A stretch of DNA of 64,000 nt. Origin: a phage. The stretch is taken from sequence record PQ327946.1, one strand, 5' to 3'. Positions 9,385-38,803 of the stretch are shown here, piece by piece (positions within the stretch are counted from its first letter, which is position 1; each line of letters opens with the position of its first letter). Under the pieces are notes generated by a model that was not told the DNA's origin, ran no database searches, and worked only from the letters and a program-made list of their open reading frames with translations. A program made the position numbers and the translations under genes.

Positions 9385-11598
9385 TTATTTGGCCGCTTCC
9401 ACGGCCTTCATGAATTTAACGATTTGAGCGACCTGTTCTTTGGAAAGAGTACCACGTCGTCCCATGTATTCTGACACAATATGATAATTGGTTTCGAATT
9501 CAATAACCATTTTATCATCATTATCGTAAGCATTATCTTTAAGCTTATCGAAAATTTTAGCACACAATTCTAACTTCTTATTCAGTTCTCTGTTGGTAGC
9601 ACCTGAGAATCGATTCCATCCCCAACGATTATTTACTGTTGAAAGTTTTGCAAAATCTTTACTGATTTCTTTGTTCTTAGAGCTAAAATACTTACTAAGG
9701 AAGTTAAGCTCTTCATTACGAGTAATATGATTCAAATAAGGCTGGGCTCTACGACTTGGTGATACATACTCATCATAATCCACTTTATCAATTAGCATAA
9801 TATAGTCATTAATTGATTTTTCAAACAAACATTCTACTTCACCAAGTTTACGAACTTTCTTAGCAATCTGTGGACGGACTACAGTGAACTCTTTAATACC
9901 TGACAAATCAGCAATACGAGTCAAGAAACTAGAATCATAGTTCAACCAACCTTTATTTGCGTCAAGACATTCAGCGTTAAAACGATTACGAATTACAACA
10001 TAACCTTGGATTTCATCAGCTTTACCGGCCGGAATAAAGAGATCTTCTGATACCCAAACATCGTTTTCATTCTTAAAGAACCGATGAGCACTTGGGGATT
10101 TAGGACGAGGCCCATTAGAACGAGTCTTGACTTCAATCCATGGCTTAACGATTTGTAAAAGCTCTGAAGTCTTGTACATGTTAATGTTGTCGCCATCAAA
10201 GATAACTTTAAGACGTTCCAGAAGTTTCATTGCATCTTCGTCTGTAGGGTCAACGAATAGTACGCTTTTACCAAAACCGCGTGGAACTTTACCGTTTAAT
10301 TTAACCTCGTCTTTAGACATTTCAATTGAATTAAGAGCTCGCATTAATGGAACGCGTCCCTTAACGTCGTCAATAACAATTTCAACGTTTTTAATGTTAA
10401 TGCCAATCAGACTGTTAATTGAAATGGTTGATGATGAGCTACCACTTTCACGAATACGACGAAGACGAGGGTCTTCAATGATATCGTATACGACGCCAAG
10501 ATTACACCACTCAGGCCCCATTTTAAAACGTTTGTACAACTCGGAATAAGTTAGTTGTTCTTTAGAGTATTTCAGTGATTCAATATTAGACCCAGCCTTT
10601 TCCATGTATTTACGAGCGGTATAGCCAAGAGAATCAATTTCACGGAACACATGATGTGGGTATTTACAATCAATCCATTTCTTAGAATCTTCAGCGAACA
10701 ATTTAGCATCGATTTCTGCAACGCGTTTATGGATATTTGCTACTGTACGTTTATCAAATGACAATGCTTCACGAGACGGGGCTACATCTAGTTCACCCAT
10801 AGGGAATTTAATATAAGCTGTAGTGCATCGCGTCATCATCCATGTTTGTTCTTTAATAACACTTCCGATTGGATATACAATACCACCATAAACAGCCATG
10901 ATATTACCACGTTCACCCCATGGAGCTTCCTTGGCCAAATATACATCATCGAATTCCGGGAAGTATTTGATATCTTTAACACCACGAACTTCTGCAATAT
11001 CGCCGAGAGGACGCATAACATAAGCAATTTCGGATGCGAACTTTTCAAAATCTTCTGGGTTAACAGGCACAACTACTTCAACGCCGGTCCGGTCATCAGG
11101 ACCCATCTTATCTACGAAGGTTGGCTTAATTTGTGGGCCTGTGTCATCTTGGTAGATTACGTAACCACGAACTTCACCATTGTGATAAGACGTAAGGTTA
11201 AACGTATCAGTATATGCTAATGGAGCTTTAGAGCCGAGCCCGAATCCACCAATGAAATCGTTACTTGATGTTTTAGTTGAAGCAAAATATGAGTTATAGA
11301 TTCCTGGCTCTTCATCATTACCTCGAATGGTGAAATCACTCATACCAGGACCAAAGTCTCGAACTACAAAACGTGGGTCTAAACGACCTGGAGCCTGAAC
11401 AATAAACTTATCAGTGCAACCATTAAGAATTTGACCATCGATACAGTTTGTGATTAATTCGCGTACACAAGCCAATTCTTTGTTTGTATAAAGGTCATTA
11501 GACAAAATCTTATAAACTTTGCTATTGCCTTGAATAGTAAATGCTGTGCTCTTACCGCCTGAACCAATAATCGTTTCTTTAGCCGTTTCAATAATCAT
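9385..11598 (-). CDS. rIIA: rIIA protein (GHKL ATPase-like N-terminal domain)
   Basis: 737 aa; N-terminal ELITNCIDG and DFGPGMS motifs; size and synteny match T4 rIIA. Confidence 0.85.
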   Translation of the reverse strand: MIIETAKETIIGSGGKSTAFTIQGNSKVYKILSNDLYTNKELACVRELITNCIDGQILNGCTDKFIVQAPGRLDPRFVVRDFGPGMSDFTIRGNDEEPGIYNSYFASTKTSSNDFIGGFGLGSKAPLAYTDTFNLTSYHNGEVRGYVIYQDDTGPQIKPTFVDKMGPDDRTGVEVVVPVNPEDFEKFASEIAYVMRPLGDIAEVRGVKDIKYFPEFDDVYLAKEAPWGERGNIMAVYGGIVYPIGSVIKEQTWMMTRCTTAYIKFPMGELDVAPSREALSFDKRTVANIHKRVAEIDAKLFAEDSKKWIDCKYPHHVFREIDSLGYTARKYMEKAGSNIESLKYSKEQLTYSELYKRFKMGPEWCNLGVVYDIIEDPRLRRIRESGSSSSTISINSLIGINIKNVEIVIDDVKGRVPLMRALNSIEMSKDEVKLNGKVPRGFGKSVLFVDPTDEDAMKLLERLKVIFDGDNINMYKTSELLQIVKPWIEVKTRSNGPRPKSPSAHRFFKNENDVWVSEDLFIPAGKADEIQGYVVIRNRFNAECLDANKGWLNYDSSFLTRIADLSGIKEFTVVRPQIAKKVRKLGEVECLFEKSINDYIMLIDKVDYDEYVSPSRRAQPYLNHITRNEELNFLSKYFSSKNKEISKDFAKLSTVNNRWGWNRFSGATNRELNKKLELCAKIFDKLKDNAYDNDDKMVIEFETNYHIVSEYMGRRGTLSKEQVAQIVKFMKAVEAAK

Positions 11599-11610: not shown

Positions 11611-11811
11611 TCACAAGTTACGTTTAAAAATTTCTGCTACTTCAAGAAGTTCTTCTTTAGTAGCTGTATCGGTTTGTATTTTATATCGAATTTCCTTAAA
11701 GCGTTCTTTAAAGGCTTCAGCTGATTCGATATCAAAAAATCTTTGGATAAGCCGGAATTCCCGGAGCACAGCTTTATCAAAAAGTTCCAAGTCCACGTTA
11801 TATGTTCTCAT
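11611..11811 (-). CDS. Hypothetical protein rIIA.1-like (66 aa)
   Basis: Small ORF directly upstream of rIIA as in T4. Confidence 0.5.
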   Translation of the reverse strand: MRTYNVDLELFDKAVLREFRLIQRFFDIESAEAFKERFKEIRYKIQTDTATKEELLEVAEIFKRNL

Positions 11812-11903
11812 AATATTCTCTTCAGTAGATTCCTAGGGCACTATTACTAAAGACCATATAATCTATCATCTTATGTGTAATAGTGCCTCAGGCTATTCAG
11901 GAT

Positions 11904-13004
11904 TTATGCTGTGAAGATTTTATCCCACATCGCAACAACTGCATCTCGGTTATACTTCTTCCATACTGCTTCAGCACGTTTAACTCGAGCTTCGTATGTA
12001 TCAGTGAATTCTAATACAGCTTTTGTGTAAAGCGCAACTACTTCTTTCTTAGGAGTAGAGGAATCAATTTCTACACGCACAGTATCTGGGTCGTATTCAA
12101 ATGTCGCATGAGGATAATCCTTAAAAACTAACTGGATTACAGGGACACCTTTAGAGATGGCTTCAATAGAACTATTCTCTACTGTACCTGTGTCAGGACA
12201 AGTATTAATAAGTGCTTTAGCTGTTTTAAGACGTTCCATGATTTCACTGTGTGGAGCATCAATAATAACAGGATATTTAGCTGGTGGTGCCCATTTGCTT
12301 GGACAGTATCCTACACCATTTTCGCCTAGTGCTTTAATTGCTTCAAGAGCAACATCAGTGCGACGCATTTTAGTGTCATAACGTTGTGCACTAATAATCA
12401 GATCAGTCGCCGGAAGAACTTCAGGTTTCTCATTCAAACAAATAACCGGATAATCTTCGGCTTCAAACAACGGATTTGCTCGCCAATAATCATAATCAAT
12501 TTTGTCAGTCAGACCTGAAGTCATATAACAATATTTGCGTTCAAATTCACGGAAGGCTTTAGTAGGAGCATAACTCTTACCACCATTCTTATGAATTTGA
12601 ATAGTCTGGTCCCAAATTTGAACAATGCCACGAGATACTGGTTCAAATGGTGTTGCCATAAAATTCTTATGAACTTTAGAGAGACCTGCGTCTTTAATTG
12701 CCTGAACGGTTAGTTTAGTCGGTTCCATAGTAACAACAAAATCGTATTCATGGATGCCGGCTAGTTCAACAATCTTACGAGCCATAGTATAACTCATACC
12801 TAGACTGAATTTAGTCAGATGACCAACAGGATGGTGTGTAACTTTCCAGTCACCAAACGTGTCATTATCAAAGCCGATATAATCAATATCAGCACCGATG
12901 GACACAAGATATTTCAACACATTTAAATGTACTGCTTCAAGGCCACCTTGTACACGGTCAGGATTAAATGGGACTGCGCGAGATGGGATAAACATAACTT
13001 TCAT
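11904..13004 (-). CDS. GT-B fold glycosyltransferase, candidate DNA (5-hmC) glycosyl/arabinosyl transferase
   Basis: 366 aa; C-terminal motif VENSSIEAISKGVPVIQ resembles the GT4/GT-B donor-binding signature; sits between rIIA.1 and 39 where T4 has gene 60. Confidence 0.55.
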   Translation of the reverse strand: MKVMFIPSRAVPFNPDRVQGGLEAVHLNVLKYLVSIGADIDYIGFDNDTFGDWKVTHHPVGHLTKFSLGMSYTMARKIVELAGIHEYDFVVTMEPTKLTVQAIKDAGLSKVHKNFMATPFEPVSRGIVQIWDQTIQIHKNGGKSYAPTKAFREFERKYCYMTSGLTDKIDYDYWRANPLFEAEDYPVICLNEKPEVLPATDLIISAQRYDTKMRRTDVALEAIKALGENGVGYCPSKWAPPAKYPVIIDAPHSEIMERLKTAKALINTCPDTGTVENSSIEAISKGVPVIQLVFKDYPHATFEYDPDTVRVEIDSSTPKKEVVALYTKAVLEFTDTYEARVKRAEAVWKKYNRDAVVAMWDKIFTA

Positions 13005-13020
13005 AATTAAGCCTTATTAA

Positions 13021-13048
13021 AATTAAAATGAAGCTCCCGAAGGAGCTT
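13021..13048 (-). terminator. Terminator hairpin (AAGCUCC-UUCG-GGAGCUU) overlapping the gene 39 stop
   Basis: + strand aagctcccgaaggagctt, then a U-rich run on the minus strand. Confidence 0.5.
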
Positions 13049-14864
13049 AGGACATCCATTCTTTACGAAGTTCAGAATCATCACCCAACAACATTTCAAA
13101 GAGTTCTTTCCAATTTTCAGGAAGTTTAACTACGTCGTACACAGGGTTCTGAATCATTTCACGATATTCTGACTTTTCAAGGGAGCCCAATCCCTTGATG
13201 TATCGAATACTATGCTTAGGAAGTGTATCTTTAGCTTCTTCATACTCAGCTACAGTATAAAACCATTTTTGAGTTTTGCCAATTTGTGCAATAATTACAG
13301 GCGTTTTAACAAAGCGAATACGTCCTTGTTCAAACAATTCAGGCCAATTACTAAAGAAAGCAAGCAAAGCCGGATAAATACTTCCAAGACCGTCATGATC
13401 GGCATCGGTCATAATTGCAATATTACGATAGTTCGTATTCTCTGCCTTTTCACCAAGAATAAGACCTGTGATAGCACAGATATCGAAGAGCTCTTTGTTC
13501 TTCATCATATCAGCATATGACATACCCCAGCTATTCATCACCTTACCACGTAATGGGAATCCGCCGTGTAGTTCACGGTCACGAACATCAATGAGATAAC
13601 CAATTGCCGAATCACCTTCTGTTAAAAACAATGTCGTATCTGCATCTTTACCACATTGGTTAGCTTTAATATGCTTATGAACCTTAGCTTTAGTTGCCTT
13701 TTTAGCTGCTTTAGTTTCTGCGGCCTTTTCTGCTGCCAATTTACGAGCTAATGCTGCTTCAACAATAGGCATAATCAAGGCTTCATTTTTAAGAAGTGCC
13801 TGAGCAATTTTCTTAGCATCTAATTGGATATGATTACGAATATCACCATACGTTGACGTTAAACGTTCTTTAGTCTGAGAATCAAAACGCATGTTGCTCA
13901 TGTCTCTAATAAACATCAACAATGTGAGACATTCTTTAACACGAGCTTTAGTGACTTCAATACCCTTATATTTCTTTTTAATGCCGGGCAAAAGATGTTC
14001 GCAGATATCATCCATTACACATTCAACATGATGACCACCATTTTTAGTATGGATGTTATTCACATAAGTTAAATGACGGAAGCCGTCTGGTGATGTTGTG
14101 AATGCTATAGAGACTTTATCATTTTCTTGAATGATGTTATCTTCACCAAATTGTTTAGCAAATCGTTTAAAATTACCATCAACCTTTTTACCATTAAATG
14201 TGAACTTGATATCAGGATAAACGACTGCCAATGTTTGAAGTCGGTCTAAAGTAATATCTAAATAAATTTGAGATAAATTATGCTCTTCAAATGAAGAGAA
14301 ATCAGGAGTGAAGATTACTTTGGTGCCTTTACCTTTAGATTTCTTAGAAGACCATGATTTGTTTTCCATTCCGTTTGAACAGTTAACAGTGATTTCATTT
14401 TCGCCATCTGACGTGATGCCTGTAAACAACGTAGAGAAGATATTAGTTAAACTACTCCCGACGCCGTTCATACCACCAGTCTTGCGTTCAGAGTCATCAC
14501 CAAAGTTACCACCAGCCTTTGGAATAGTCCAGGCTGCTACAGGCCCAGGAATTTGTTCACCTGTTTGGTCGGTAACTAAACCTTGAGGAATACCACGTCC
14601 GTTATCTTCCACTGAGACTTGATTATTTTTAATTTGCACATCAATTTTATTTGCAAACTTAAATGATGTACGAATAGCTTCATCAACCGAGTTGTCAATA
14701 ATCTCATCGATTAATTTAACCAGACCAGGAACATATTCAACTTGTTGATATTTACCAAACAAAAAACGCTCGTGGGCTTCTTTGGCCGAAGAACCAATAT
14801 ACATGCCACTTCGTTTCTTAATATGTTCTACATCTGACAATACCTTAATTTCATTTTTAATCAT
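13047..14864 (-). CDS. 39: DNA topoisomerase II large subunit gp39 (GyrB-like), uninterrupted form
   Basis: 605 aa; GyrB ATPase and Toprim segments; matches the unsplit 39 of T2/T6-type phages, not the T4 39+60 split. Confidence 0.85.
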   Translation of the reverse strand: MIKNEIKVLSDVEHIKKRSGMYIGSSAKEAHERFLFGKYQQVEYVPGLVKLIDEIIDNSVDEAIRTSFKFANKIDVQIKNNQVSVEDNGRGIPQGLVTDQTGEQIPGPVAAWTIPKAGGNFGDDSERKTGGMNGVGSSLTNIFSTLFTGITSDGENEITVNCSNGMENKSWSSKKSKGKGTKVIFTPDFSSFEEHNLSQIYLDITLDRLQTLAVVYPDIKFTFNGKKVDGNFKRFAKQFGEDNIIQENDKVSIAFTTSPDGFRHLTYVNNIHTKNGGHHVECVMDDICEHLLPGIKKKYKGIEVTKARVKECLTLLMFIRDMSNMRFDSQTKERLTSTYGDIRNHIQLDAKKIAQALLKNEALIMPIVEAALARKLAAEKAAETKAAKKATKAKVHKHIKANQCGKDADTTLFLTEGDSAIGYLIDVRDRELHGGFPLRGKVMNSWGMSYADMMKNKELFDICAITGLILGEKAENTNYRNIAIMTDADHDGLGSIYPALLAFFSNWPELFEQGRIRFVKTPVIIAQIGKTQKWFYTVAEYEEAKDTLPKHSIRYIKGLGSLEKSEYREMIQNPVYDVVKLPENWKELFEMLLGDDSELRKEWMS

Positions 14865-14910: not shown

Positions 14911-14929
14911 AAAAAGGGCCGAAGCCCTT
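14908..14929 (-). terminator. Terminator hairpin (AGGGC-UUCG-GCCCU + U tract)
   Basis: + strand aaaaagggccgaagccctt at the 3' end of the goF-like gene. Confidence 0.5.
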
Positions 14930-24463: not shown

Positions 24464-25482
24464 ATCTTAGAATAACGAGATAATCTCATTTTAGCATGCA
24501 ACCCACTTGAAATATTCTGTTTCATATATTCTAAAATTTCTTGTGGTGTTGCATTTTCTTTCATTACCATATCATTCACATCCTTTGATCTCCATGGAGC
24601 TCGGTCCCAGAACATGACACGTTCGCCTGCATCTACTAATCGCTTCATACGAGCTATAGTATCCGGATGCCTAGGTTCATTATCCATCACCCATACCCGA
24701 CGTTCTTTAAATGGTACCACATCTAAATCTATTGAGCCGCCTGTAATAGCGATTGCATTGGGTATGAATAAACTATCAATAGGGCCTTCCATTACCCAGA
24801 CGTCTCCTTCCTTAACACGTTCAACACCATAAATTTTTGTTGCAGACTCAAACGCTTTAATAGTGATATATTTCTGAGGAGCATCTTTACGAAGTGCACG
24901 TCCTTGGAATGACTCGGCCTTCCCGTCTTTATTAAAAATAGGAATCACTAAACGTGGTTCTGGAATCTCTTTCTTATACGTACCAGGTTGAATCTTGTTG
25001 ACCAATTTGGGCCATTCTAATGTGAACCATAATCTGTTCCATGATTCTTTAGGAATGCATCGAGACTTAACATATTTCACAATAGGATGCTCTTCAGGCA
25101 GCTTGTCCAGACGAGAACAAGACGGCAAAGAATTTATAGTCTTTTTCTCCGGTTCTGGTTTATGTTCAGGAACCTTTTCAATCTTTGGTTCCATTCTAGC
25201 TTTTTCTTTACGAACTTCCATTAGATATTCGCGGTAAAGCTCTTCATCATACTCTTTTAAGTATCCGGAAATCGTATTATGATATTGACAGTTATAGCAA
25301 TGCACATTACCTGGAGTACCGCCATAATACCAACCGCGAGCTTTCATTGCATCTGTCTGGGAGTCGCCACAAACTGGACAACGAAATGTTAATTTAAATG
25401 TGCTTGAATTATTGATTTGTCTAAAACGAGGTAGGTGAGAAAACGCACGATAAGCAAATTCATTATCTATCCATTCAGCCAT
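24460..25482 (-). CDS. 61: DNA primase gp61
   Basis: 340 aa; N-terminal zinc ribbon CPVCGDS..CYNC; Toprim-like region; size matches T4 gp61. Confidence 0.85.
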   Translation of the reverse strand: MAEWIDNEFAYRAFSHLPRFRQINNSSTFKLTFRCPVCGDSQTDAMKARGWYYGGTPGNVHCYNCQYHNTISGYLKEYDEELYREYLMEVRKEKARMEPKIEKVPEHKPEPEKKTINSLPSCSRLDKLPEEHPIVKYVKSRCIPKESWNRLWFTLEWPKLVNKIQPGTYKKEIPEPRLVIPIFNKDGKAESFQGRALRKDAPQKYITIKAFESATKIYGVERVKEGDVWVMEGPIDSLFIPNAIAITGGSIDLDVVPFKERRVWVMDNEPRHPDTIARMKRLVDAGERVMFWDRAPWRSKDVNDMVMKENATPQEILEYMKQNISSGLHAKMRLSRYSKI

Positions 25483-25521
25483 AGTATTCTCCAGAGGCCT
25501 TAAATTAATAAGGCCATCATA

Positions 25522-27955: not shown

Positions 27956-28213
27956 TTATTTTAAACTTTTGCGAAATTTGCGTTTTTCTTGACGAATCTG
28001 TCGTTTAGTCGGACGTACAGCAAATTTAACGAAGTCCACTTTGCCGTGTGGAAACTTTTCAGATGCTTCACAGTCCATCATTAGTTCCCATCCTTCCAGA
28101 ATAAGAGCTTTCCATTGTGTAGTTGATGCAAATTCGTATGTTGATGGTTTAAACACAGTTGAATACATATTATCCTCTGAAATCAGCTTCAAAAACTTTC
28201 TCGTCATTAACAA
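27956..28213 (-). CDS. Small protein with basic C-terminal tail (VRPTKRQIR motif)
   Basis: 85 aa; paralogous to 56954-57151 through the shared motif F.VRPTKRQ[IL]R. Confidence 0.5.
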   Translation of the reverse strand: MLMTRKFLKLISEDNMYSTVFKPSTYEFASTTQWKALILEGWELMMDCEASEKFPHGKVDFVKFAVRPTKRQIRQEKRKFRKSLK

Positions 28214-28382
28214 ATGCTTTAACTAATGCTTTGTTCACTTCAGCAAGTTGTACCGTAACCCACTCGATTTCTTCACGGTCACCTGATAACATGATATCTT
28301 TAGTGAACATCTCGCCGCTTTTAAACCAACCGATAAAAGTAACTTTAGTTAATTTGCTCATATTTCCTCGCAAAATGCCCAT
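28170..28382 (-). CDS. Hypothetical protein (70 aa)
   Basis: ORF. Confidence 0.4.
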   Translation of the reverse strand: MGILRGNMSKLTKVTFIGWFKSGEMFTKDIMLSGDREEIEWVTVQLAEVNKALVKAFVNDEKVFEADFRG

Positions 28383-28675
28383 TCAGCGTGATAAACTGTA
28401 GCACCTTTAGTATTATTCATTTGAACTACGTCTACCGGAGAAATTACTCGATAGAGACGTGGTTCACCTCCGTAAGAGCGTGCTGCTCGTCCTGCATAAA
28501 TCTTTGCTAAACCGATATCTTCGGTAAAGAATACACGGTCCAAGTTTTTCTTACGTCCAGTTTCAGACAGAACTCCTGTTTCCTCAGGAGGACAAAGCAT
28601 GTTTTCGATGTTAGCTGAACTACTTGAACCGTGATAAAAAATCTTAAATTCTGCTTTACAATCGATGGTTTTCAT
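28358..28675 (-). CDS. Hypothetical protein (105 aa)
   Basis: ORF. Confidence 0.45.
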   Translation of the reverse strand: MKTIDCKAEFKIFYHGSSSSANIENMLCPPEETGVLSETGRKKNLDRVFFTEDIGLAKIYAGRAARSYGGEPRLYRVISPVDVVQMNNTKGATVYHAEWAFCEEI

Positions 28676-28682
28676 TTTGTTC

Positions 28683-28715
28683 TCCAGTAGTTGATAGGTC
28701 TATAATAACACAACT
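28683..28715 (-). promoter_or_regulatory. Early promoter cassette (agttgataggtctataataacac)
   Basis: Repeat family gataggtctataata. Confidence 0.35.
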
Positions 28716-28730
28716 ACTGGAGAAGTAAAC

Positions 28731-29144
28731 TTAAAAACGTAATTTAGATACATCTGCGTTGATTTCGTTTTGGTTTGCGTCGTATGCAATTAAACGAACA
28801 GCTTTAGATGGGTCATTCAATGCATAGAAATGATGGAACATTGCTCGAACGATATCACCATTTACGAGTTCTACCTGGATAGGAGAACCTTTTTCGAGTT
28901 GGAAATGTTCATAAGCTTTGATGGTTCGCAGATAATCAAGTTTTTGATTTCCGGCTCCAACAATTTGTACGATACGTTTGCCCATGTTTTCCATACGAGA
29001 TACAATAGTTTTAGGAGCAAGAATAACGTAGGTTGCCAGCGGAGAAACTACTTCAACAGTTGTGTTTTCGGTGATTGCAGTAAAAATTGCTTGAGACATA
29101 TTCATAATGTTTTCCTCTTGGTTGGTGTAAGTACATCGTATCAT
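28731..29144 (-). CDS. Hypothetical protein (137 aa)
   Basis: ORF. Confidence 0.5.
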   Translation of the reverse strand: MIRCTYTNQEENIMNMSQAIFTAITENTTVEVVSPLATYVILAPKTIVSRMENMGKRIVQIVGAGNQKLDYLRTIKAYEHFQLEKGSPIQVELVNGDIVRAMFHHFYALNDPSKAVRLIAYDANQNEINADVSKLRF

Positions 29145-29162
29145 GCCTAGAGGAAGATGTAA

Positions 29163-29192
29163 ACCCCGAAAGGAGACCGAAGTCTCCTTTTT
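29163..29192 (-). terminator. Hairpin (GGAGAC-UUCG-GUCUCC) after gene 41
   Basis: + strand ccccgaaaggagaccgaagtctccttttt; palindromic stem with T-runs on both sides. Confidence 0.45.
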
Positions 29193-29193
29193 A

Positions 29194-30636
29194 TTAAAAT
29201 TTTAACTCATTGGCTAAGCTATCTAGGTCAGCACGGGTTGTTTTGGCTTTACCTACGCGTTCCGTACGATTCACCTCTGCCTGACGCATCTGAGCACCTG
29301 CGTTTTCATTTACTGTGTTAGGTGTGTTCATGCCTTCTTGCTCAATCTCAACCCATTTCTGGTTGCCTTTACGTACACCCATCAGGAATTTATTCCACTT
29401 ATTCTTATCACCGTATCGTGATTTGATTTGTTTGATAAGTTGTTGTTCAGCTTGTGCAAGTTCTTCGGTTTCAATTACGGCCAACATGAAATCCGCCGTT
29501 GCTGGTAAACCTGCTGATTCTGCAATATCGCTCATGTTCATATCCGAAGCATCCCATGCTGCGCGTCCTACTTGAGCGGCAGTCCATAGAACTGTTTCAG
29601 ATTCTACTGCTAATGCACGAAGTTCTTCTGCGATAGCTTTAACTAATGTGTAGCTATTTTCAGTGTAAACTCTGATACGACAAGACCCACAAATACCTAA
29701 GTAATCAACCATGATTACAGATGGCACAAAGTTCTTCTTGAGTTTCAATTCATTAAGCAATGCACGGAATGTATTAGCATTAGCTCCACCAGTAGGATAC
29801 TGTTTAACTACTAAACGTCCTAATGTGGATTTTGAACGCCATTTTTCCATCTTGGCTTTATATTCAGCATAAGATACGTTACCATCATCGATATCATCAA
29901 GTGATACGTCAAGCATGTTTGCATCTATACGCTTAGCACAAACTTCTTCAGCCATTTCCATAGAAATATAAAGAACATTATGGCCCGTTTGAAGATAATC
30001 TGCAGCAAGTGAACAAAGGCCTAAAGATTTACCAACGTTAACACCAGCCATTAAAACATTCAGTGTACCGGTTTCAGCACCACCTTTAGTGATTTTATTC
30101 AGAATGTTTAATTTGAACGGGACCTTACGTGCTTTGTTCAGATAAGAAAGCCAGCGTGCTTCATAGTCTTCCATCCAGTCATGTCCAACATAACTATCGA
30201 ACGAAATTGAAAGTGCTTGACGCATAATATCAGGAATAGCTCCTACGTCAGGCATTTTCTTGTTACGTTGTTCTGGAGGTAGTTCAGCATTAGACTGAAT
30301 CTCAATGATTTTGGACGTAGCATTATACATCGCTTTTTGCTGGACATATTTCTCAGTTTCTTTAACTAACCATTCGTGGTCTTCAGGAGTATCAGCCAAT
30401 TTTTCAATTAGGTCTGAAGTTCCTTTATATTCGGCTTCAGTTAAAGAACTGTTATCTAAAGCCACCTTTAATGCATTGATAGATGGCATTGCATTATATT
30501 CGTTAACGTGGCTCTTTATAATTTTAAAGACGTTTTTTGCCGGTCCACGCTCAAAATACTCAGAATCCATATAAGGCCAGACCTTAGAAAAATAAGCCTG
30601 GTCGTATACTAGATGAGACAAAATAATTTCTACCAC
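29194..30636 (-). CDS. 41: Replicative DNA helicase gp41 (DnaB-like)
   Basis: 480 aa; MVEIILSHLVYDQAYFSKVWPYMDSEYF.. and Walker A GVNVGKSLG match T4 gp41. Confidence 0.9.
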   Translation of the reverse strand: MVEIILSHLVYDQAYFSKVWPYMDSEYFERGPAKNVFKIIKSHVNEYNAMPSINALKVALDNSSLTEAEYKGTSDLIEKLADTPEDHEWLVKETEKYVQQKAMYNATSKIIEIQSNAELPPEQRNKKMPDVGAIPDIMRQALSISFDSYVGHDWMEDYEARWLSYLNKARKVPFKLNILNKITKGGAETGTLNVLMAGVNVGKSLGLCSLAADYLQTGHNVLYISMEMAEEVCAKRIDANMLDVSLDDIDDGNVSYAEYKAKMEKWRSKSTLGRLVVKQYPTGGANANTFRALLNELKLKKNFVPSVIMVDYLGICGSCRIRVYTENSYTLVKAIAEELRALAVESETVLWTAAQVGRAAWDASDMNMSDIAESAGLPATADFMLAVIETEELAQAEQQLIKQIKSRYGDKNKWNKFLMGVRKGNQKWVEIEQEGMNTPNTVNENAGAQMRQAEVNRTERVGKAKTTRADLDSLANELKF

Positions 30637-32252: not shown

Positions 32253-32801
32253 TTAACGAGCCCATTTGATAATTTCTGTAATCAAATTATTACGTTCGCT
32301 TGCATTAAATCCTATAACTTTGTTAGCACCATCATGATTAAGTAATTGATACGTTTGGATTTCGTTATGAATTGCAAACTCTTCAAAATATGAAATGACT
32401 GTATTAAAACCGAATGAAGACAAAGTAATAAGGTCGTCTTCAAAACTTTCAGTCATTTCGTTACGTGTTAAAATAATTGTGAACACATCATGGTTTTGGC
32501 AAAGACGAACATAATCCTGTTCATAAACGTCAAGAACCGAGTCCGCATCTTGTCGAATACGTCCATAAACCCAGTTACTAATATATCCACGGTCTAACAG
32601 ATAAATCTTAGTAGGGTCTAAATAATTCAACATCGTTTCGAAACAGCCAACTTCATTTCGAGACTTAACATCGAAACGTCCATCAACTGTTCGTTTAAGG
32701 AAATCAATCTTTACATATCTTTCACTAATTTCCATTATGTCATTAATGAAAGTTGTTTTACCAGCATTATCCGGGCCATCTACTAAAATAATTTTAGCCA
32801 T
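32253..32801 (-). CDS. P-loop nucleoside/nucleotide kinase-like protein
   Basis: 182 aa; Walker A GPDNAGKTT and LLDRGYISNWVYG (dNK/thymidylate-kinase-like DR motif); occupies the locus where T4 has beta-gt. Confidence 0.45.
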   Translation of the reverse strand: MAKIILVDGPDNAGKTTFINDIMEISERYVKIDFLKRTVDGRFDVKSRNEVGCFETMLNYLDPTKIYLLDRGYISNWVYGRIRQDADSVLDVYEQDYVRLCQNHDVFTIILTRNEMTESFEDDLITLSSFGFNTVISYFEEFAIHNEIQTYQLLNHDGANKVIGFNASERNNLITEIIKWAR

Positions 32802-32802
32802 T

Positions 32803-33702
32803 TTATTCCTCGATTACGACATCTTCATATTTAGGTATATTATACGGTGAAGAAATTAAAGCGTTAAAGTAGATGAACTCACCAAGACCTGGATGGAATA
32901 CTTCTTCAGGATTTTCGAAATATTGAATCTTCGGACGTCCTTTAAGAATTTGATAGTACTCAGTTTTAGTTGGATTAAAAATTCGAATCAGCGCTTCTTC
33001 AGGATACTTATTTCTGTCGAAACTATTATTTGGATCAGTTATATAAAGCGGTTGACCTAATTGAATTGCGCATTCAACCACTTGTTCAAAACGATAGCAC
33101 GGGTCACTAATTCGAAATGGATGAAAAATACCATCTAGATGAATAGGAGCCAAATCACCTACAAGACGCTGCATGATGGAAGGACGTATAACTTTCTGCG
33201 TTACGATAATCTTATTACCATCCGCACCAGCGTTAACCAGCACTTCCTTTTGACGTTCATTCAACACAGTAGTTTGAAGTGAACGATTAACCGACAACAT
33301 GTCGGTTTTTAAGAATTCGTCAATATAAAAACGCGGTTTATTAGGGTCTGCGGTGATATTGAAATTGAATTCTACATCAAAAGCACCATCATATCCAGTG
33401 ATATCTGTTATTAGAAAATCACAATCATAATAAGCAATTAATGAATCAACCACAAATTCATTTTCAGACCAGAAATATTTACGAGTGTTATACGCGTTAT
33501 CTTTATACCATAATGGAACAAACTTAAATTCTGGGAAAAGACGTTCACATTCTTTAATATCAGATGCATTACGTGGATATGTAATCACATCACCTGGATT
33601 AGCACGGTGCAAATGAAGTTGGAAGTTGCCATCCTTAAGGATAGCATACTGTCCAGTTTCATAAGACCGCATACTCAAGATAGGTACGCGGAAAATAGCC
33701 AT
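32803..33702 (-). CDS. Hypothetical protein (299 aa), candidate DNA-modification enzyme
   Basis: No recognisable motif; directly coupled (ATGA overlap) to gene 42 where T4 has beta-glucosyltransferase. Confidence 0.45.
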   Translation of the reverse strand: MAIFRVPILSMRSYETGQYAILKDGNFQLHLHRANPGDVITYPRNASDIKECERLFPEFKFVPLWYKDNAYNTRKYFWSENEFVVDSLIAYYDCDFLITDITGYDGAFDVEFNFNITADPNKPRFYIDEFLKTDMLSVNRSLQTTVLNERQKEVLVNAGADGNKIIVTQKVIRPSIMQRLVGDLAPIHLDGIFHPFRISDPCYRFEQVVECAIQLGQPLYITDPNNSFDRNKYPEEALIRIFNPTKTEYYQILKGRPKIQYFENPEEVFHPGLGEFIYFNALISSPYNIPKYEDVVIEE

Positions 33703-34418
33703 TAGTCAAGGAATCCTTTAACATAATCAAAATCACGTTCAAACACATGGGCACTTACCATGGTATGAGTATAATCACCAACTTCTACACCACATTCGTT
33801 AGCGATATAATGAAGTAATTTTCCTTGGAGATAAAAATCCAACTGCATAACAACAGCACAGTTCTGAGAACGCATATGGCAGTGGGTATAAAGCTTACCA
33901 TCACGAATATAATAAGTCACCGAGTCAGTACATGGATATTCAAGCGTTTCGTCCGAATCAAGCAAAGCCTGATCAGAACTTTCTAGAATTTGGAACACAA
34001 CTCTTCGGGAGTTAGGCTTCTCTTTAAGTTCTTTTAGAAGAGCTGGTAATTGGGCCGCAATGCGAGGACCATAGAAAGTGTTGAAGTTCGCCGGCAAAAC
34101 ATCTGATTTTGGTTTAGAAATAAATTTAGCGACATTAGGATATGCCTTAAACGCTTCTTCTGCGTCAGTACCACCAGAAATCATAAACTTCCAGAAGTCT
34201 TCGGCATATTCATAAGAGATGCGGTTAATACGTGGGTCGGTCATTTTGAATGATGATGGAGTGTCAACAACTACTGTCATAGACCCAATTTCATTACAAC
34301 GTCCAATACGAGAATCAGTTACGAATTCCGGGTTTTCTAAAATTTCACGATTGACTGCTTTAAATGCGGTTTGAAAATCTGCGGCTTTGATATATTTCAT
34401 TGTGTTATGTTTTCCCAT
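33702..34418 (-). CDS. 42: dCMP hydroxymethylase gp42 / thymidylate-synthase-family enzyme
   Basis: 238 aa; TS-family catalytic EYPCTD and SAHVFERDF motifs; position between uvsX and 43 as T4 gene 42. Confidence 0.6.
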   Translation of the reverse strand: MGKHNTMKYIKAADFQTAFKAVNREILENPEFVTDSRIGRCNEIGSMTVVVDTPSSFKMTDPRINRISYEYAEDFWKFMISGGTDAEEAFKAYPNVAKFISKPKSDVLPANFNTFYGPRIAAQLPALLKELKEKPNSRRVVFQILESSDQALLDSDETLEYPCTDSVTYYIRDGKLYTHCHMRSQNCAVVMQLDFYLQGKLLHYIANECGVEVGDYTHTMVSAHVFERDFDYVKGFLD

Positions 34419-34696: not shown

Positions 34697-35857
34697 TCAT
34701 TCTGGGTACCTCAAAGCGTCGTCAGAGTTAGTTATATCAATAATAGATATAGAATTTTCTGATAACCCATTTTTAGATAACTGACGTTTATAATATCTTT
34801 CACAATATGTACACGTCGTCCCGCAGATTTCATTAGCACAATCGAAATCTGGATGTTTGAACCACCTTTTTTCTAAAAAGCCATCTAACAAAGAGGTTTC
34901 AATATTTACCGTATGTGAAAACTCGGTCTCATTTTCAAGAGTGAAAATGGTCTCTAAAGGCTTCCACAATTCCAACAAATTACCTTCAAATTTTTCGGAA
35001 GCATAAGCTTCAAGAACTTTCAAAATGTAGTCTGTGCTACCTGTACGTCCTGAAACTTTGAATTGAGTGATACCAATATCATTATAAAGTTTCAAATCTT
35101 GAGGACGAACAAAACGAGTTCTCAACCAGTTAAATGGGTCTGTATCACGAGCTTTAATACAGTGCTGCATTGGATACCCATTTAAGGATTTGGCATCATC
35201 TACTGTAACATCGGTGCTATGGAAAATATAGCAAGAGTCACGATAACTACAATGTGTTGTATACCCTTTACCAGCATTAGAACAGAACTCATTTACAAGA
35301 ACTTCAAATATTATATTGTTCTTATTACAAAACTCTGCTGCACGCTTCAGGAAAGAAACTGAACGGTTCTTATGAATTCCGCAGCAGACCTTTTTGATAT
35401 TATATTGGTCATGCAAGTATTTGATTTGAGTTACAGCATCGACATGTAGAATTGTTGAAACTTCAATCTCAATGTCTTTATTGACTTCACGAACAATTTC
35501 CATAACAACAGGGTTAGCGATAGTAATACGCCATACGCCTATTGACCAAAGATACTGAACATAATCCTGAATAGCTTTCTTCTTCCACTCAACTAGTTCT
35601 CTTTTTGAACCAGGATTTATCGTGTTGAGTGTATAGTTAAAGCAAATACCTAATTCGTTACAACGTTTAACGTAGTCTTCTAACATCTTTTTGTCAACGT
35701 CAGGAAGCCTAAAATCAGGTCTGGCTGCTACAAAAGCCATTTCTCTTGTAGAGCCATATACTTCGTTTATCAAGCTATTAGGATAGGTTTTATTGAGCTC
35801 TACGATTTTATCAAGAAGAGCTAAATCAAAATTCGTTCCGATTTTAAAAGTATTCAT
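34697..35857 (-). CDS. U32-peptidase-like Cys-rich protein
   Basis: 386 aa; FNYTLNT and EVLVNEFCSNAGKGYTTHCSY resemble the U32 signature; C-terminal cluster CANEICGTTCTYC; family assignment tentative. Confidence 0.35.
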   Translation of the reverse strand: MNTFKIGTNFDLALLDKIVELNKTYPNSLINEVYGSTREMAFVAARPDFRLPDVDKKMLEDYVKRCNELGICFNYTLNTINPGSKRELVEWKKKAIQDYVQYLWSIGVWRITIANPVVMEIVREVNKDIEIEVSTILHVDAVTQIKYLHDQYNIKKVCCGIHKNRSVSFLKRAAEFCNKNNIIFEVLVNEFCSNAGKGYTTHCSYRDSCYIFHSTDVTVDDAKSLNGYPMQHCIKARDTDPFNWLRTRFVRPQDLKLYNDIGITQFKVSGRTGSTDYILKVLEAYASEKFEGNLLELWKPLETIFTLENETEFSHTVNIETSLLDGFLEKRWFKHPDFDCANEICGTTCTYCERYYKRQLSKNGLSENSISIIDITNSDDALRYPE

Positions 35858-35914: not shown

Positions 35915-36301
35915 TTATAGATTCGGTTTATATGATTTAAATGTTTCGAATTCGCCTTTATTCATAAGAGCTTTGAATTCGTCAGGACGCATAGCTTTGT
36001 CGTCGATAATCCAATCATATACTGGTTTATGTGTTAGCAAATTATGGTACTTCAATCCAATGTTTGCCAAGTTCTGAATCAGACTTGGGAGAATGTCAAT
36101 TGCTATACGACCAGGACCGACTGACTTCATACCGCGAGCAGTGTAAAGCGTTATGGTATGCCCTGCATCATACAGGGCATTAATGGCAGATACCATTTCG
36201 ACGTCTGGTTTGAAGTTCACGTAATCACGATTGTTATTCCACTCTGTTATACAATCATCGACATCAAAACAAAGATTAAGCATGTTTTCTACACGGTGCA
36301 T
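35915..36301 (-). CDS. HAD-superfamily phosphatase (KdsC-like)
   Basis: Motif I LCFDVDDCIT near the N-terminus; start set at the ATG overlapping the upstream stop (TAATG). Confidence 0.5.
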   Translation of the reverse strand: MHRVENMLNLCFDVDDCITEWNNNRDYVNFKPDVEMVSAINALYDAGHTITLYTARGMKSVGPGRIAIDILPSLIQNLANIGLKYHNLLTHKPVYDWIIDDKAMRPDEFKALMNKGEFETFKSYKPNL

Positions 36302-37986
36302 TAGATTCGTTCCCATTGATGAGTGATATCGCCACCGATTGGACGATAAGAAACACCAGTTTCTTTATCAGTTAGTACCCATTTACCAGGATTTTTTGTA
36401 ATCAGAGTAGCCGTTACAGGTTCTGCTACATCATAACTAATAGTGCCGTCCTGAAGTACACGGCCCATGTTACGTAATTGCTTAGTCAGAAGTTCCATAC
36501 CTTTATAATATGCGGCTACCGCTTTAAGTGGATTATTCTTGAAATAACCACCTAATGCAATCCAGATAATTGCTACAGCCAAATGATGATACTCATTAAA
36601 CGAACTCATCTTTCCATATTTGTAAACTAATGGATTGATGTTAATAGTCACATTACAAGTTGTTTCATCAATAGTAAACTGACCCCAGGTCGGATTAGCG
36701 TTGAATTCATCATAACCTGAAACAGCATAAAGCACTTTAGCTTCATCATACAATTTTGGCCCATAAATCTTGGTTTCACCAAAATATCCACGAGGGTCGA
36801 TAAACTTGACTTCACCATTATCAGTAATCATAGTATTACTGAAGTTCGGGTCACCATGAATAACAGAGTACTGTCCCTGAGAACGGTTATGATAACGAAT
36901 AAGGTGTTCTAAAGCTTGTTTCAGCATTGGCTTCAGACGCCCAATCTTAGTGTAGTTCACATGTGTGATTTTACCAAATGAATCAATCAATGGTTGAATA
37001 CTTTCACAACGATCAATAACTTTCGTATAGAATTCTTTAGTGAAATCACGACGAACAGTTTCAGGACTTACAAAATAAGTGTCTGTGCTGAATTTCAGTG
37101 CGTCTAAAATTGCATCAACAATTTGTGGACGAGCAAGACTCGATTTGGATTTAATATATTCAAATGCTGGCTTACCTTTAATGCGTTCCATTTCAAAGTT
37201 ATTTTCATTAACAGAAACTAACTGAGGAACTGAATCTGATTTCACTTTAAGATACCATGAAATCTCATCTTTCTGAAGAGCTCGTCCCTGTTCGGTTAAT
37301 GCGAATTTAGTTACAGTTTCTTCACCAATTTCAACTGCATTAAAACTACGATTAAGTTCACGAACTTCATGAGCTTTTTCAAGTTTAGGCATATCACCTA
37401 AATCAATTAGATTCATAAGCTCTGATTTATTGAATGCGCTGCCGTAAAGGAATTCTACGAAATCACGTCCTTTGCAGTATTCATGAATTTCCTCATCAGT
37501 AGAACCCATATAGAATTCCCAGTCTTTGAACTGATAAATTCCTACAACATTACCACCTGTTGAACCTACGTTAGTGATATTTTCGCCGTCGAAATTATAT
37601 CGACATTCGTCACCCTTAACATAGATTGCGTTAACATTCCAAGACCATGAACCAAAATCAGGAATAATATCACACCAGTTAACAATTACATTATGACCGT
37701 CTAAATCTTTGTGTAATTTAGCAAGAGCATAAGCAGAACCGTACGCTTCATCAACTGTACGAATAGTCACATTGAACCCTTCTTGCTCACAATAAACTCG
37801 AACAGTTTCAGCAAATTTTGAATGAACTACTACAATAATTTCATCTGCGCCAAGGTCAGAATAAATTGTATACAAATTGCTCAGAATAGTGTCTTGTTTA
37901 TAGTTAACAAGCACCTTAGGAATATGATGCGTTATTGGATACAAACGAGTTGCCAGTCCAGCACCAAGAATAACAGCTTTTTTCAT
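36301..37986 (-). CDS. Bifunctional sugar-1-phosphate nucleotidyltransferase / sugar kinase
   Basis: 561 aa; N-terminal AVILGAGLATRL nucleotidyltransferase glycine loop; C-terminal VIHGDPNFSNTMI..FIDPRG of APH/choline-kinase-type kinases. Confidence 0.6.
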   Translation of the reverse strand: MKKAVILGAGLATRLYPITHHIPKVLVNYKQDTILSNLYTIYSDLGADEIIVVVHSKFAETVRVYCEQEGFNVTIRTVDEAYGSAYALAKLHKDLDGHNVIVNWCDIIPDFGSWSWNVNAIYVKGDECRYNFDGENITNVGSTGGNVVGIYQFKDWEFYMGSTDEEIHEYCKGRDFVEFLYGSAFNKSELMNLIDLGDMPKLEKAHEVRELNRSFNAVEIGEETVTKFALTEQGRALQKDEISWYLKVKSDSVPQLVSVNENNFEMERIKGKPAFEYIKSKSSLARPQIVDAILDALKFSTDTYFVSPETVRRDFTKEFYTKVIDRCESIQPLIDSFGKITHVNYTKIGRLKPMLKQALEHLIRYHNRSQGQYSVIHGDPNFSNTMITDNGEVKFIDPRGYFGETKIYGPKLYDEAKVLYAVSGYDEFNANPTWGQFTIDETTCNVTININPLVYKYGKMSSFNEYHHLAVAIIWIALGGYFKNNPLKAVAAYYKGMELLTKQLRNMGRVLQDGTISYDVAEPVTATLITKNPGKWVLTDKETGVSYRPIGGDITHQWERI

Positions 37987-38027: not shown

Positions 38028-38171
38028 CTAGTTAAAGCATTCATACTTTGCTTGTAGTCCAATCATAATCCATCCGATTATAAGAGTCGGAATCATTACT
38101 GGAGCCGTTAAGCTCCAGTAGATAGTCATGACAAGCATCAATAGTAAAAGTCCTATTGTTATTGCTTTCAT
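38028..38171 (-). CDS. Small membrane protein (about 47 aa)
   Basis: Hand-translated MKAITIGLLLLMLVMTIYWSL..; ATGA overlap with the SIS gene stop; coordinates approximate. Confidence 0.3.
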   Translation of the reverse strand: MKAITIGLLLLMLVMTIYWSLTAPVMIPTLIIGWIMIGLQAKYECFN

Positions 38172-38803
38172 TGTTCGCCTCGTAACATGGCACCTAGTGC
38201 ACCGCCAGGGTGGAACTTAAGGAAGTCATTAGAGGTAAATCCACGTTCAGACGAAAGGTTGATAGCAAACGTATCGATAAGCGCTAACAACAATGTAGTG
38301 GACATAGTCGGAGCCAGAGAATTCTCATCAACCTCTACTGCGATGCCTGTACAGAACGTATAATCAAAAAGAGCTTCGTATTCTTGTGGAATGTCTGGGT
38401 TACAATGCAACAGAATCTGTTTGACGTTCGGACGAATCATTTTAAGATGCTTAGCCACGCCTATCATTTCTTCAGTTTTACCAGAACGACTAATATGAAT
38501 CAACACATCATTAGGCGCAATGAATCCTGCATCACCGTGAGAATAATGCCCGGTGTTCAAGTACATACTCGGGATACCGAGTGAAGCAAATGTCTCAGAA
38601 GCTTTAGTTGCGATATTAGCGTTCTTACCAACACCTGTAATAATTACACGACTTTCATAATTACTAAGTCCTGGGCGTCGAAGAGTTTCTAGAATAGCAT
38701 TATAACGAGCAGGGTTTTGACTAATTACTTTGGCCATAGCGGCCAAAGAAGAAGCTTGTTTTATGATTGCGTCAATAGCGATAGTAATAGGAGTAGTTTT
38801 CAT
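38168..38803 (-). CDS. SIS-domain sugar-phosphate isomerase (arabinose-5-phosphate isomerase KdsD/KpsF-like, no CBS domains)
   Basis: 211 aa; ITGVGKNANIATKASETFASLGIPSMYLNTGHYSHGDAG matches the KdsD/GmhA SIS core pattern. Confidence 0.6.
   Translation of the reverse strand: MKTTPITIAIDAIIKQASSLAAMAKVISQNPARYNAILETLRRPGLSNYESRVIITGVGKNANIATKASETFASLGIPSMYLNTGHYSHGDAGFIAPNDVLIHISRSGKTEEMIGVAKHLKMIRPNVKQILLHCNPDIPQEYEALFDYTFCTGIAVEVDENSLAPTMSTTLLLALIDTFAINLSSERGFTSNDFLKFHPGGALGAMLRGEQ

Follow-up and report, generated by a model that had tools for sequence, protein, structure and literature searches.

The 366-aa protein encoded at 11904..13004 on the minus strand of the window (the whole 64,000-nucleotide stretch of phage DNA analysed here, sequence record PQ327946.1) is very probably a UDP-arabinofuranose (UDP-Araf)-dependent DNA arabinosyltransferase of the 5-hydroxycytosine (5hoC) pathway. 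We refer to it as GT2, and to a second GT-B-fold protein of the same phage as GT1. It is likely that GT1 attaches the first arabinose and that GT2 adds a second arabinofuranose to this base-proximal sugar. This order of the two enzymes is what we infer; gene identity, fold, phyletic pattern and the UDP bound by a protein 99% identical to GT2 are direct observations. GT2 itself is already known from earlier work (Thomas 2018, Mahler 2025, He 2026, Lee 2026 and the structures 9iqz/9ir0).

With arabinosylated 5hoC, the DNA of Mosigvirus and related phages is protected against restriction enzymes, DNA glycosylases and some CRISPR-Cas systems. How many arabinoses it carries appears to alter which defences still work, a point of relevance to choosing or engineering therapeutic phages. 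In this context, GT2 would be the determinant that separates di-arabinosylated Mosigviruses from their mono-arabinosylated relatives. Relative to the original prediction, the annotation is corrected in that the base is read as 5hoC and not hydroxymethylcytosine (hmC), the phage carries two candidate transferases and not one, and GT2 is most likely the second-step enzyme.

The gene and its neighbourhood

The flagged gene and its immediate surroundings contain the following features.

11611..11811, minus strand: rIIA.1, downstream neighbour of GT2 (98.5% identity to RB69 rIIA.1)
11904..13004, minus strand: GT2, ortholog of RB69 ORF003c/gp3; a GT-B protein and very probable DNA arabinosyltransferase, proposed to be the second-arabinose (chain-extending) enzyme
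13031..13048, minus strand: hairpin with a UUCG tetraloop and a tail rich in T, located between the stop of gene 39 and the start of GT2
13047..14864, minus strand: gene 39, unsplit topoisomerase II large subunit (gene 39 fused with gene 60), 605 aa, upstream neighbour

The open reading frame begins with ATG and lies, as originally described, between rIIA.1 and an unsplit gene 39. It is a real gene rather than a chance reading frame, because PHROG 8302 aligns to it from end to end (E=1e-222, profile positions 1-366 covered) and tblastn gives matches in 212 phage records. Its product shares 363/366 residues with RB69p003 (NP_861693.1; 99.2% identity over 366/366), and the three substitutions (T56N, V231A and T327I) are conservative-looking. 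Identity, location and companion cluster all place GT2 in the RB69 ORF003c/gp3 orthologous group.

The gene order is that of RB69 (rIIA.1, then GT2 and the unsplit gene 39), with rIIA at 9385-11598, downstream of rIIA.1 and 93% identical to RB69 rIIA. In T4, the interval from rIIA.1 to gene 39 holds genes 60, 60.1 and mobA, and describing the position of GT2 as the slot where T4 has gene 60 was accurate. Gene 39 of the window is unsplit, since T4 gp39 (1-473, 79% identity) and then T4 gp60 (27-159, 87%) align consecutively on one protein, which is 95.9% identical to RB69 gp39. The hairpin (AAGCTCC-TTCG-GGAGCTT) was picked up by a scan for terminator-like sequences, and we infer from its form that it may act like a terminator or a stabiliser. 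Promoter-scan matches around GT2 were no more numerous than in shuffled sequence.

The source phage is a Mosigvirus (RB69-like). Between 9 and 16 kb the window shows 97-98% nucleotide identity to many Mosigvirus genomes (AV117, ST0, APCEc01, mar005P1 and HY126 included), its DNA polymerase is 100% identical to that of RB69, and the cluster between uvsX and DNA polymerase is 98-100% identical to its RB69 counterpart.

Fold and donor-binding residues

GT2 is a GT-B-fold glycosyltransferase. This part of the original prediction was right because a 99%-identical protein has been solved: a profile search of PDB sequences returned one match, 9iqz/9ir0 (E=3e-189), where 9iqz is the ‘phage HY126 glycosyltransferase’ and 9ir0 the same protein with UDP (~99% identical to GT2; released 2025-07-16). 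The two Rossmann-like domains with a nucleotide-sugar site in the cleft, which define the GT-B superfamily, are present. The AlphaFold2 model of GT2 is weak (pLDDT 62, from a five-sequence alignment), and evidence for the fold therefore comes mainly from this PDB entry.

A donor-binding motif of GT4 type had also been proposed (VENSSIEAISKGVPVIQ, residues 275-291 of GT2), and here the picture is mixed. The structural side of the resemblance held, since the next-best folds in Foldseek are the GT4-type enzymes PimA and BshA (E about 1e-8). The profile side did not. GT2 matches no Pfam family even at E<=10 (Glycos_transf_1 and Glyco_trans_1_4 included) and no NCBIfam model, so that it falls outside CAZy GT4/Pfam Glycos_transf_1 (PF00534, PF13692) as defined by profiles. 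Ten members of the GT2 family searched against Pfam gave sub-threshold matches only (GT4-conflict 0.0028, Glyco_trans_1_4 0.013, Glycos_transf_1 0.048). The stretch itself reads T274-V-E276-N-S-S-I-E281-A-I-S-K-G286-V-P288-V289, in which E281 is invariant and E276 nearly so. This gives an E276-x4-E281 spacing, compared with the canonical E-x7-E, and the x7 position is taken by G273.

Residues invariant across the family include G20, R208, R214, E281, G286, P288 and V289 (G286-x-P288-V289), and they appear, judging by sequence, to occupy positions where GT-B enzymes bind their donor. G20, E281 and the corresponding arginine (numbered Arg-207) had previously been mapped onto T4 alpha-GT (Thomas et al. 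2018, PMC6024577).

The modification cluster and the modified base

The genes for the base and its sugar lie together, at higher window coordinates.

32253..32801, minus strand: P-loop nucleotide (dTMP-kinase-like) kinase, RB69 gp45 (98.4% to RB69p045; weak dTMP-kinase match)
32803..33702, minus strand: GT1, the second GT-B-fold protein, RB69 gp46:47 and DLP3 gp79; candidate base-proximal arabinosyltransferase
33702..34418, minus strand: thymidylate-synthase homolog, 5-hydroxy-dCMP (5hodCMP) synthase, RB69 gp48 (Pfam Thymidylat_synt; 99.6% to RB69p048)
34697..35857, minus strand: Peptidase-U32-like protein, RB69 gp50 (Pfam PF01136; 99.2% to RB69p050)
35915..36316, minus strand: HAD-type sugar phosphatase, RB69 gp51, AfhF-like (NCBIfam capsule-biosynthesis phosphatase, E=4e-13; 99.2% to RB69p051)
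36301..37986, minus strand: bifunctional nucleotidyltransferase and kinase, RB69 gp52:53, AfhE-like (Pfam NTP_transferase and weak kinase-type matches; 99% to RB69 p052+p053)
38168..38803, minus strand: SIS-domain arabinose-5-phosphate isomerase, RB69 gp55 (Pfam SIS; 99% to RB69p055)

These companion genes (5hodCMP synthase, GT1 and the UDP-arabinose genes, at 32.3-38.8 kb) are 98-100% identical to RB69 gp45-gp55, and the product at 36301..37986 is assigned to making UDP-arabinofuranose. GT2 was said to be physically separate from the sugar-activation genes, and it does lie about 20 kb away. GT1 was missed at that stage because the module had been drawn as 34.7-38.8 kb, omitting the three genes at 32.25-34.4 kb. 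The protein has 299 aa, with 99% identity to RB69 p046+p047 and 45.6% to DLP3 gp79. A Pfam scan of GT1 gave no match; its AlphaFold2 model (pLDDT 94.6) matches MshA (3c4q), other GT-B folds and UDP-GlcNAc 2-epimerases in Foldseek, from which a GT-B fold is predicted.

The original prediction took hmC-DNA as the acceptor, and this has to be revised. The synthase of the window is only 26% identical to T4 gp42, compared with 99.6% to RB69 gp48, and reads RSQN where T4 gp42 reads RSND (Asn for Asp). This D169N change is a diagnostic signature, and RB69 gp48 and DLP3 gp80 have been shown experimentally to be 5-hydroxy-dCMP synthases (Lee et al. 2026, PMC13326640). In the same work, the arabinose in RB69 and DLP3 DNA is ether-linked to 5-hydroxycytosine, not to hydroxymethylcytosine. 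Since the synthase is near-identical to RB69 gp48 and carries the diagnostic Asn, its sequence identifies the modified base as 5hoC rather than hmC. The HY126 ortholog of this synthase has been solved (9iqc/9ir2/9iqu).

Distribution of the two transferases and arabinose number

Of 50,697 phage records searched with tblastn, 212 contain the GT2 family, with the same count at cut-offs of 1e-5 and 1 (i.e. with no weak tail); 156 of the 212 match at >=95% identity. The records belong to Escherichia/Shigella Mosigvirus-type phages (>=95% identity, one copy) and to Acinetobacter-type T4-like phages. The latter comprise 56 records (55 named Acinetobacter and one labelled Tegunavirus sp. BRC001), with about 42% identity and matches at two places per record. 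A scan of IMG/VR for the family showed no lineages beyond Mosigvirus and Acinetobacter. The family is very small: an exhaustive HMMER search of 1.84 billion representatives returned 11 members at 50% clustering. Word-indexed searches with GT2 reached 5-6 clusters, and the mid-distance members P0007-P0010 were not among them. GT1 forms 138 clusters at 90% identity.

GT1 is found in 349 phage records and the NTP-transferase/kinase (UDP-Ara synthase) in 374. Beyond the lineages of GT2, these records come from Klebsiella, Serratia, Enterobacter, Proteus, Yersinia, Edwardsiella, Erwinia, Pectobacterium, Providencia, Dhakavirus and Shewanella Thanatos, and no GT2 homolog is present in these added lineages even at E<=1. 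The distribution of GT2 is thus strictly nested within that of the arabinose module. As for GT1, it is present in every phage lineage with the module (mono-arabinosylated Thanatos included) and, in all lineages examined, keeps its synteny with the 5hodCMP synthase. The Thanatos-1 cluster contains GT1 and no second transferase, and the cluster of Dhakavirus MX01 contains GT1 only. Thanatos TH1_065 (378 aa, beside the kinase) was considered as a hidden GT2 relative and rejected, as it is the U32-peptidase-like gene. In DLP1 and DLP3, two GT2 homologs are immediate neighbours of the kinase-GT1-synthase-phosphatase-NTP-transferase-isomerase cluster.

Lee et al. 2026 (PMC13326640) report mono- and di-arabinosylation for the DNA of RB69, tri-arabinosylation for that of DLP3 and mono-arabinosylation for that of Thanatos, and Mosigvirus NP has a mono:di ratio of 1:4 (Durham-collection paper, PMC13390438). 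Set beside our copy numbers, these reports give the following.

Thanatos: 0 GT2-family copies, 1 arabinose
RB69 and NP: 1 GT2-family copy, 2 arabinoses (mono- plus di-)
DLP3: 2 GT2-family copies, 3 arabinoses

That is, arabinose count tracks GT2-family copy number (our counts with PMC13326640 and PMC13390438), and GT2 is accessory by its phyletic pattern. Co-occurrence with the arabinose module had been proposed as a check on a role in a DNA-sugar pathway, and both came out well: the module is present in all phages with the GT2 family, and the homologs of Acinetobacter phages are located within it. Less well supported was the view of GT2 as the best candidate for placing the sugar on the base, as GT1 is conserved in all arabinosylating lineages and GT2 is restricted to those with two or three arabinoses.

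A base-proximal role for GT2 is also the view of Thomas et al. 2018, and would leave GT1 to do something else (e.g. add the second sugar). Several observations speak for it: the GT2 ortholog was the only RB69 transferase candidate found by HMM methods in 2018 (PMC6024577); the HY126 group crystallised the GT2 ortholog with UDP and not GT1 (for which no structure exists), which could mean that they regarded the GT2 ortholog as the main transferase; and single-enzyme assays showed no GT1 activity on 5hoC-DNA (PMC13326640). Yet well over 100 phage records have GT1 and the UDP-Ara synthase but no GT2 homolog, mono-arabinosylated Thanatos has GT1 only, and GT1 keeps its place beside the synthase from lineage to lineage. 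The two transferases would need to have swapped roles between lineages, and we consider this explanation rather unlikely.

The association with arabinosylating phages might instead be a coincidence, with GT2 glycosylating not DNA but, for example, a protein or a glycan of the host envelope. The enzymes nearest to it in structure modify lipids, small molecules and glycans, and its gene is 20 kb away from the module in Mosigviruses. Strict nesting within arabinosylating phages, the location inside the cluster in Acinetobacter phages and the activity of homologs on DNA in vitro (PMC13326640) nevertheless make such a role highly improbable.

Homolog biochemistry and the proposed pathway

RB69 ORF003c was proposed as an arabinosyltransferase in 2018 (Thomas et al., PMC6024577). 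More direct evidence comes from DLP3, whose gp77 and gp76 are 42.6% and 40.3% identical to GT2 over the full length (57.5% to each other). In vitro, gp76 and gp77 extend RB69 DNA by a third arabinose with UDP-Araf as donor; each is inactive alone, and they are active only jointly (PMC13326640). On 5hoC-DNA, none of the DLP3 transferases showed activity by itself, and the first sugar may be attached at either the DNA or the nucleotide level (PMC13326640). In the scheme of the authors, RB69 gp46:47 would act first and gp3 is named ‘beta-arabinosyltransferase 2’, the second-step assignment of gp3 being explicitly a proposal (Lee et al. 2026, PMC13326640). The HY126 pathway is the subject of He et al. 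2026 (Nat Chem Biol), which is evidently the source of 9iqz/9ir0 and 9iqc/9ir2/9iqu. According to a paper citing Mahler et al. 2025, deletion of an Aat in Mosigvirus Bas46 leaves a viable phage that is now sensitive to a defence system. In the literature covered, neither RB69 gp3 nor a Mosigvirus ortholog has been assayed directly, and the step given to the enzyme by He et al. 2026 or by Mahler et al. 2025 may be a different one.

Based on these data, the pathway can be pictured as a series of steps. First, the thymidylate-synthase homolog would convert dCMP to 5-hydroxy-dCMP, which replaces C in DNA, and the cluster at 32.3-38.8 kb would supply UDP-arabinofuranose. GT1 (32803-33702) would then put the first arabinose on the cytosine 5-hydroxyl. 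Finally, GT2, acting as a soluble, UDP-sugar-dependent GT-B DNA glycosyltransferase, would use UDP-Araf to extend the first sugar by a second arabinofuranose. The expected outcome is di-arabinosylated 5-hydroxycytosine, which would make up the majority of Mosigvirus cytosines. We favour the second step for GT2 because copy number tracks sugar count and because its homologs act on arabinosylated DNA with UDP-Araf.

The mutual dependence of DLP3 gp76 and gp77 (PMC13326640) raises the possibility that GT2 works only within a complex (a homo-oligomer or together with GT1), where it would contribute acceptor recognition or processivity rather than independent catalysis. The example chain of the PDB entry carries the label H, a hint that the asymmetric unit contains many copies. 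Mosigviruses, on the other hand, carry a single copy of the family, and GT2 looks catalytically competent, with the GT-B donor-binding residues all conserved and UDP bound in 9ir0. We regard dependence on a complex as improbable.

Reportedly, ‘additional Aat’ enzymes yield double and triple arabinosylation (Mahler et al. 2025). The relation between copy number and arabinose count is largely anticipated by papers of 2025-26. A broader idea is that the GT2 family forms a ‘glycan-extension’ class, in which copy numbers of 0, 1 and 2 give 1, 2 and 3 arabinoses and distant relatives extend glycans on other hypermodified bases (e.g. thymidine). This is a speculative extension that we think unlikely. 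It draws on one distant relative of GT2, P0015, with marginal homology (E=5e-4), whose metagenomic cluster contains a 5-hmdU DNA kinase, an amino-acid:DNA transferase and an inositol-1-phosphate-synthase-like gene (L011). Going by its gene content, this cluster could be a marker of sugar-bearing thymidine hypermodification, and only this thymidine-cluster link would be new.

Comparison with known systems

GT4-type retaining GT-B enzymes (PimA 2gej, BshA 3mbo, MshA, PglA and tll1591) share about 10-15% identity with GT2. GT2 differs from them in having no Pfam GT4 match, in its apparent E-x4-E spacing and in its proposed acceptor, a sugar on DNA.

The T4 alpha- and beta-glucosyltransferases (a-gt and b-gt) are analogous in that a modified cytosine is glycosylated post-replicatively from a UDP-sugar by an enzyme of GT-B fold, and HHpred has linked RB69 ORF003c to them (Thomas et al. 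2018, PMC6024577). The likeness, which the original prediction had put forward for checking, did not hold up at the level of homology. In profile-to-sequence hhalign, GT2 shows no relationship to T4 a-gt (probability 0.3%), to T4 b-gt (0.4%) or to the GT1 family, and neither T4 enzyme is among the top 50-60 structural matches of GT2. The T4 enzymes place glucose on 5hmC, whereas the GT2 pathway places arabinofuranose and its base is predicted to be 5hoC; the 5hmC acceptor from a gp42-type dCMP hydroxymethylase that characterizes the a-gt/b-gt family is absent from the phage of the window. In addition, the slot that b-gt occupies beside gene 42 in T4 is filled in the window by GT1, not GT2. Given its likely sugar-hydroxyl acceptor, GT2 is functionally closer to the second, gentiobiosyl-forming transferase of T2/T6.

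Within the arabinosylation pathway, DLP3 gp77/gp76 (Lazarusvirus arabinosyltransferases 2/3) are homologs of GT2 that act on already arabinosylated DNA. They are tandem paralogs inside the cluster of a tri-arabinosylating phage, whereas the phage of the window, of di-arabinosylated type, has one GT2 gene only, 20 kb away from its cluster. The closest comparison is RB69 ORF003c/gp3, which is the same gene as GT2 in the same position and with the same companion cluster, and from which it shows no material difference.

Cluster limits and intact reading frames

The original prediction confined the sugar-activation module to 34.7-38.8 kb. A kinase-like gene (32253-32801), the 5hodCMP synthase (33702-34418) and GT1, the candidate base-proximal arabinosyltransferase (32803-33702, minus strand), fall outside these limits. 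GT1 is a protein of 299 aa for which structure prediction returned a GT-B-like enzyme fold (pLDDT 94.6), and scans of its sequence against Pfam and NCBIfam gave no match.

GT1 is the unbroken version of RB69 gp46:47; that is, it occupies a single ORF in the window versus two in the RB69 reference, NC_004928 (p046/p047; 24597-25497). The same holds for the NTP-transferase/kinase, which is intact here (36301-37986) and split in NC_004928 (p052/p053; 28094-29780). Both RB69 splits have been regarded as sequencing errors (PMC13326640), and the single ORFs in the window agree with this view. Elsewhere, the DNA polymerase (38844-41555) shares 100% amino-acid identity with RB69 gp43, and rIIA (9385-11598) is only 93% identical to its RB69 counterpart. 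Across the window, divergence from RB69 is mosaic.

Hairpins and repeat around the transferase

Terminator-like sites are enriched in the stretch holding the GT-B transferase and gene 39 (6 observed vs 1.8 expected from shuffles). The scan for such sites included two stable hairpins with a UUCG/TTCG tetraloop and a T-rich tail:

13031-13048, minus strand: hairpin immediately past the gene 39 stop, 27 nt ahead of the transferase start
14914-14929, both strands: hairpin upstream of gene 39

An inverted repeat of about 11 nt (GGCACTATTAC ... TAATAGTGCC; 11830-11895) was also read from the sequence; it falls within the 92 nt that separate the stop of the transferase from the start of rIIA.1.

Distant relatives and related clusters

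An exhaustive search placed P0015 as the most distant relative of the transferase family (20% identity, E=5e-4). It is encoded on a metagenomic contig:

10001-11110 of the contig (Logan SRR24908209): P0015 gene

Its neighbours there include a 5-hmdU DNA kinase domain (PF18723), an amino-acid:DNA transferase (PF18724), two AdoMet_dc-like genes, an inositol-1-phosphate-synthase-like gene and a WYL protein. The locus resembles a cluster for thymidine hypermodification with a glycosyltransferase in addition.

OZ038340.1 ('Tegunavirus sp. BRC001') is the sole phage record labelled Tegunavirus to carry the transferase family. Its NTP-transferase/kinase scores as those of Acinetobacter phages Minot and PhT2 do (~54% identity), so the Tegunavirus label looks doubtful.

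The arabinosylation clusters themselves can be compared through one further gene:

34697-35857, minus strand: peptidase-U32-like protein (counterpart at 9462-10598 of the Shewanella phage Thanatos cluster)

No such protein was seen in the arabinosylation clusters of Dhakavirus MX01 and Acinetobacter DLP1/DLP3 that were inspected; those of Mosigvirus and Shewanella Thanatos both keep it.
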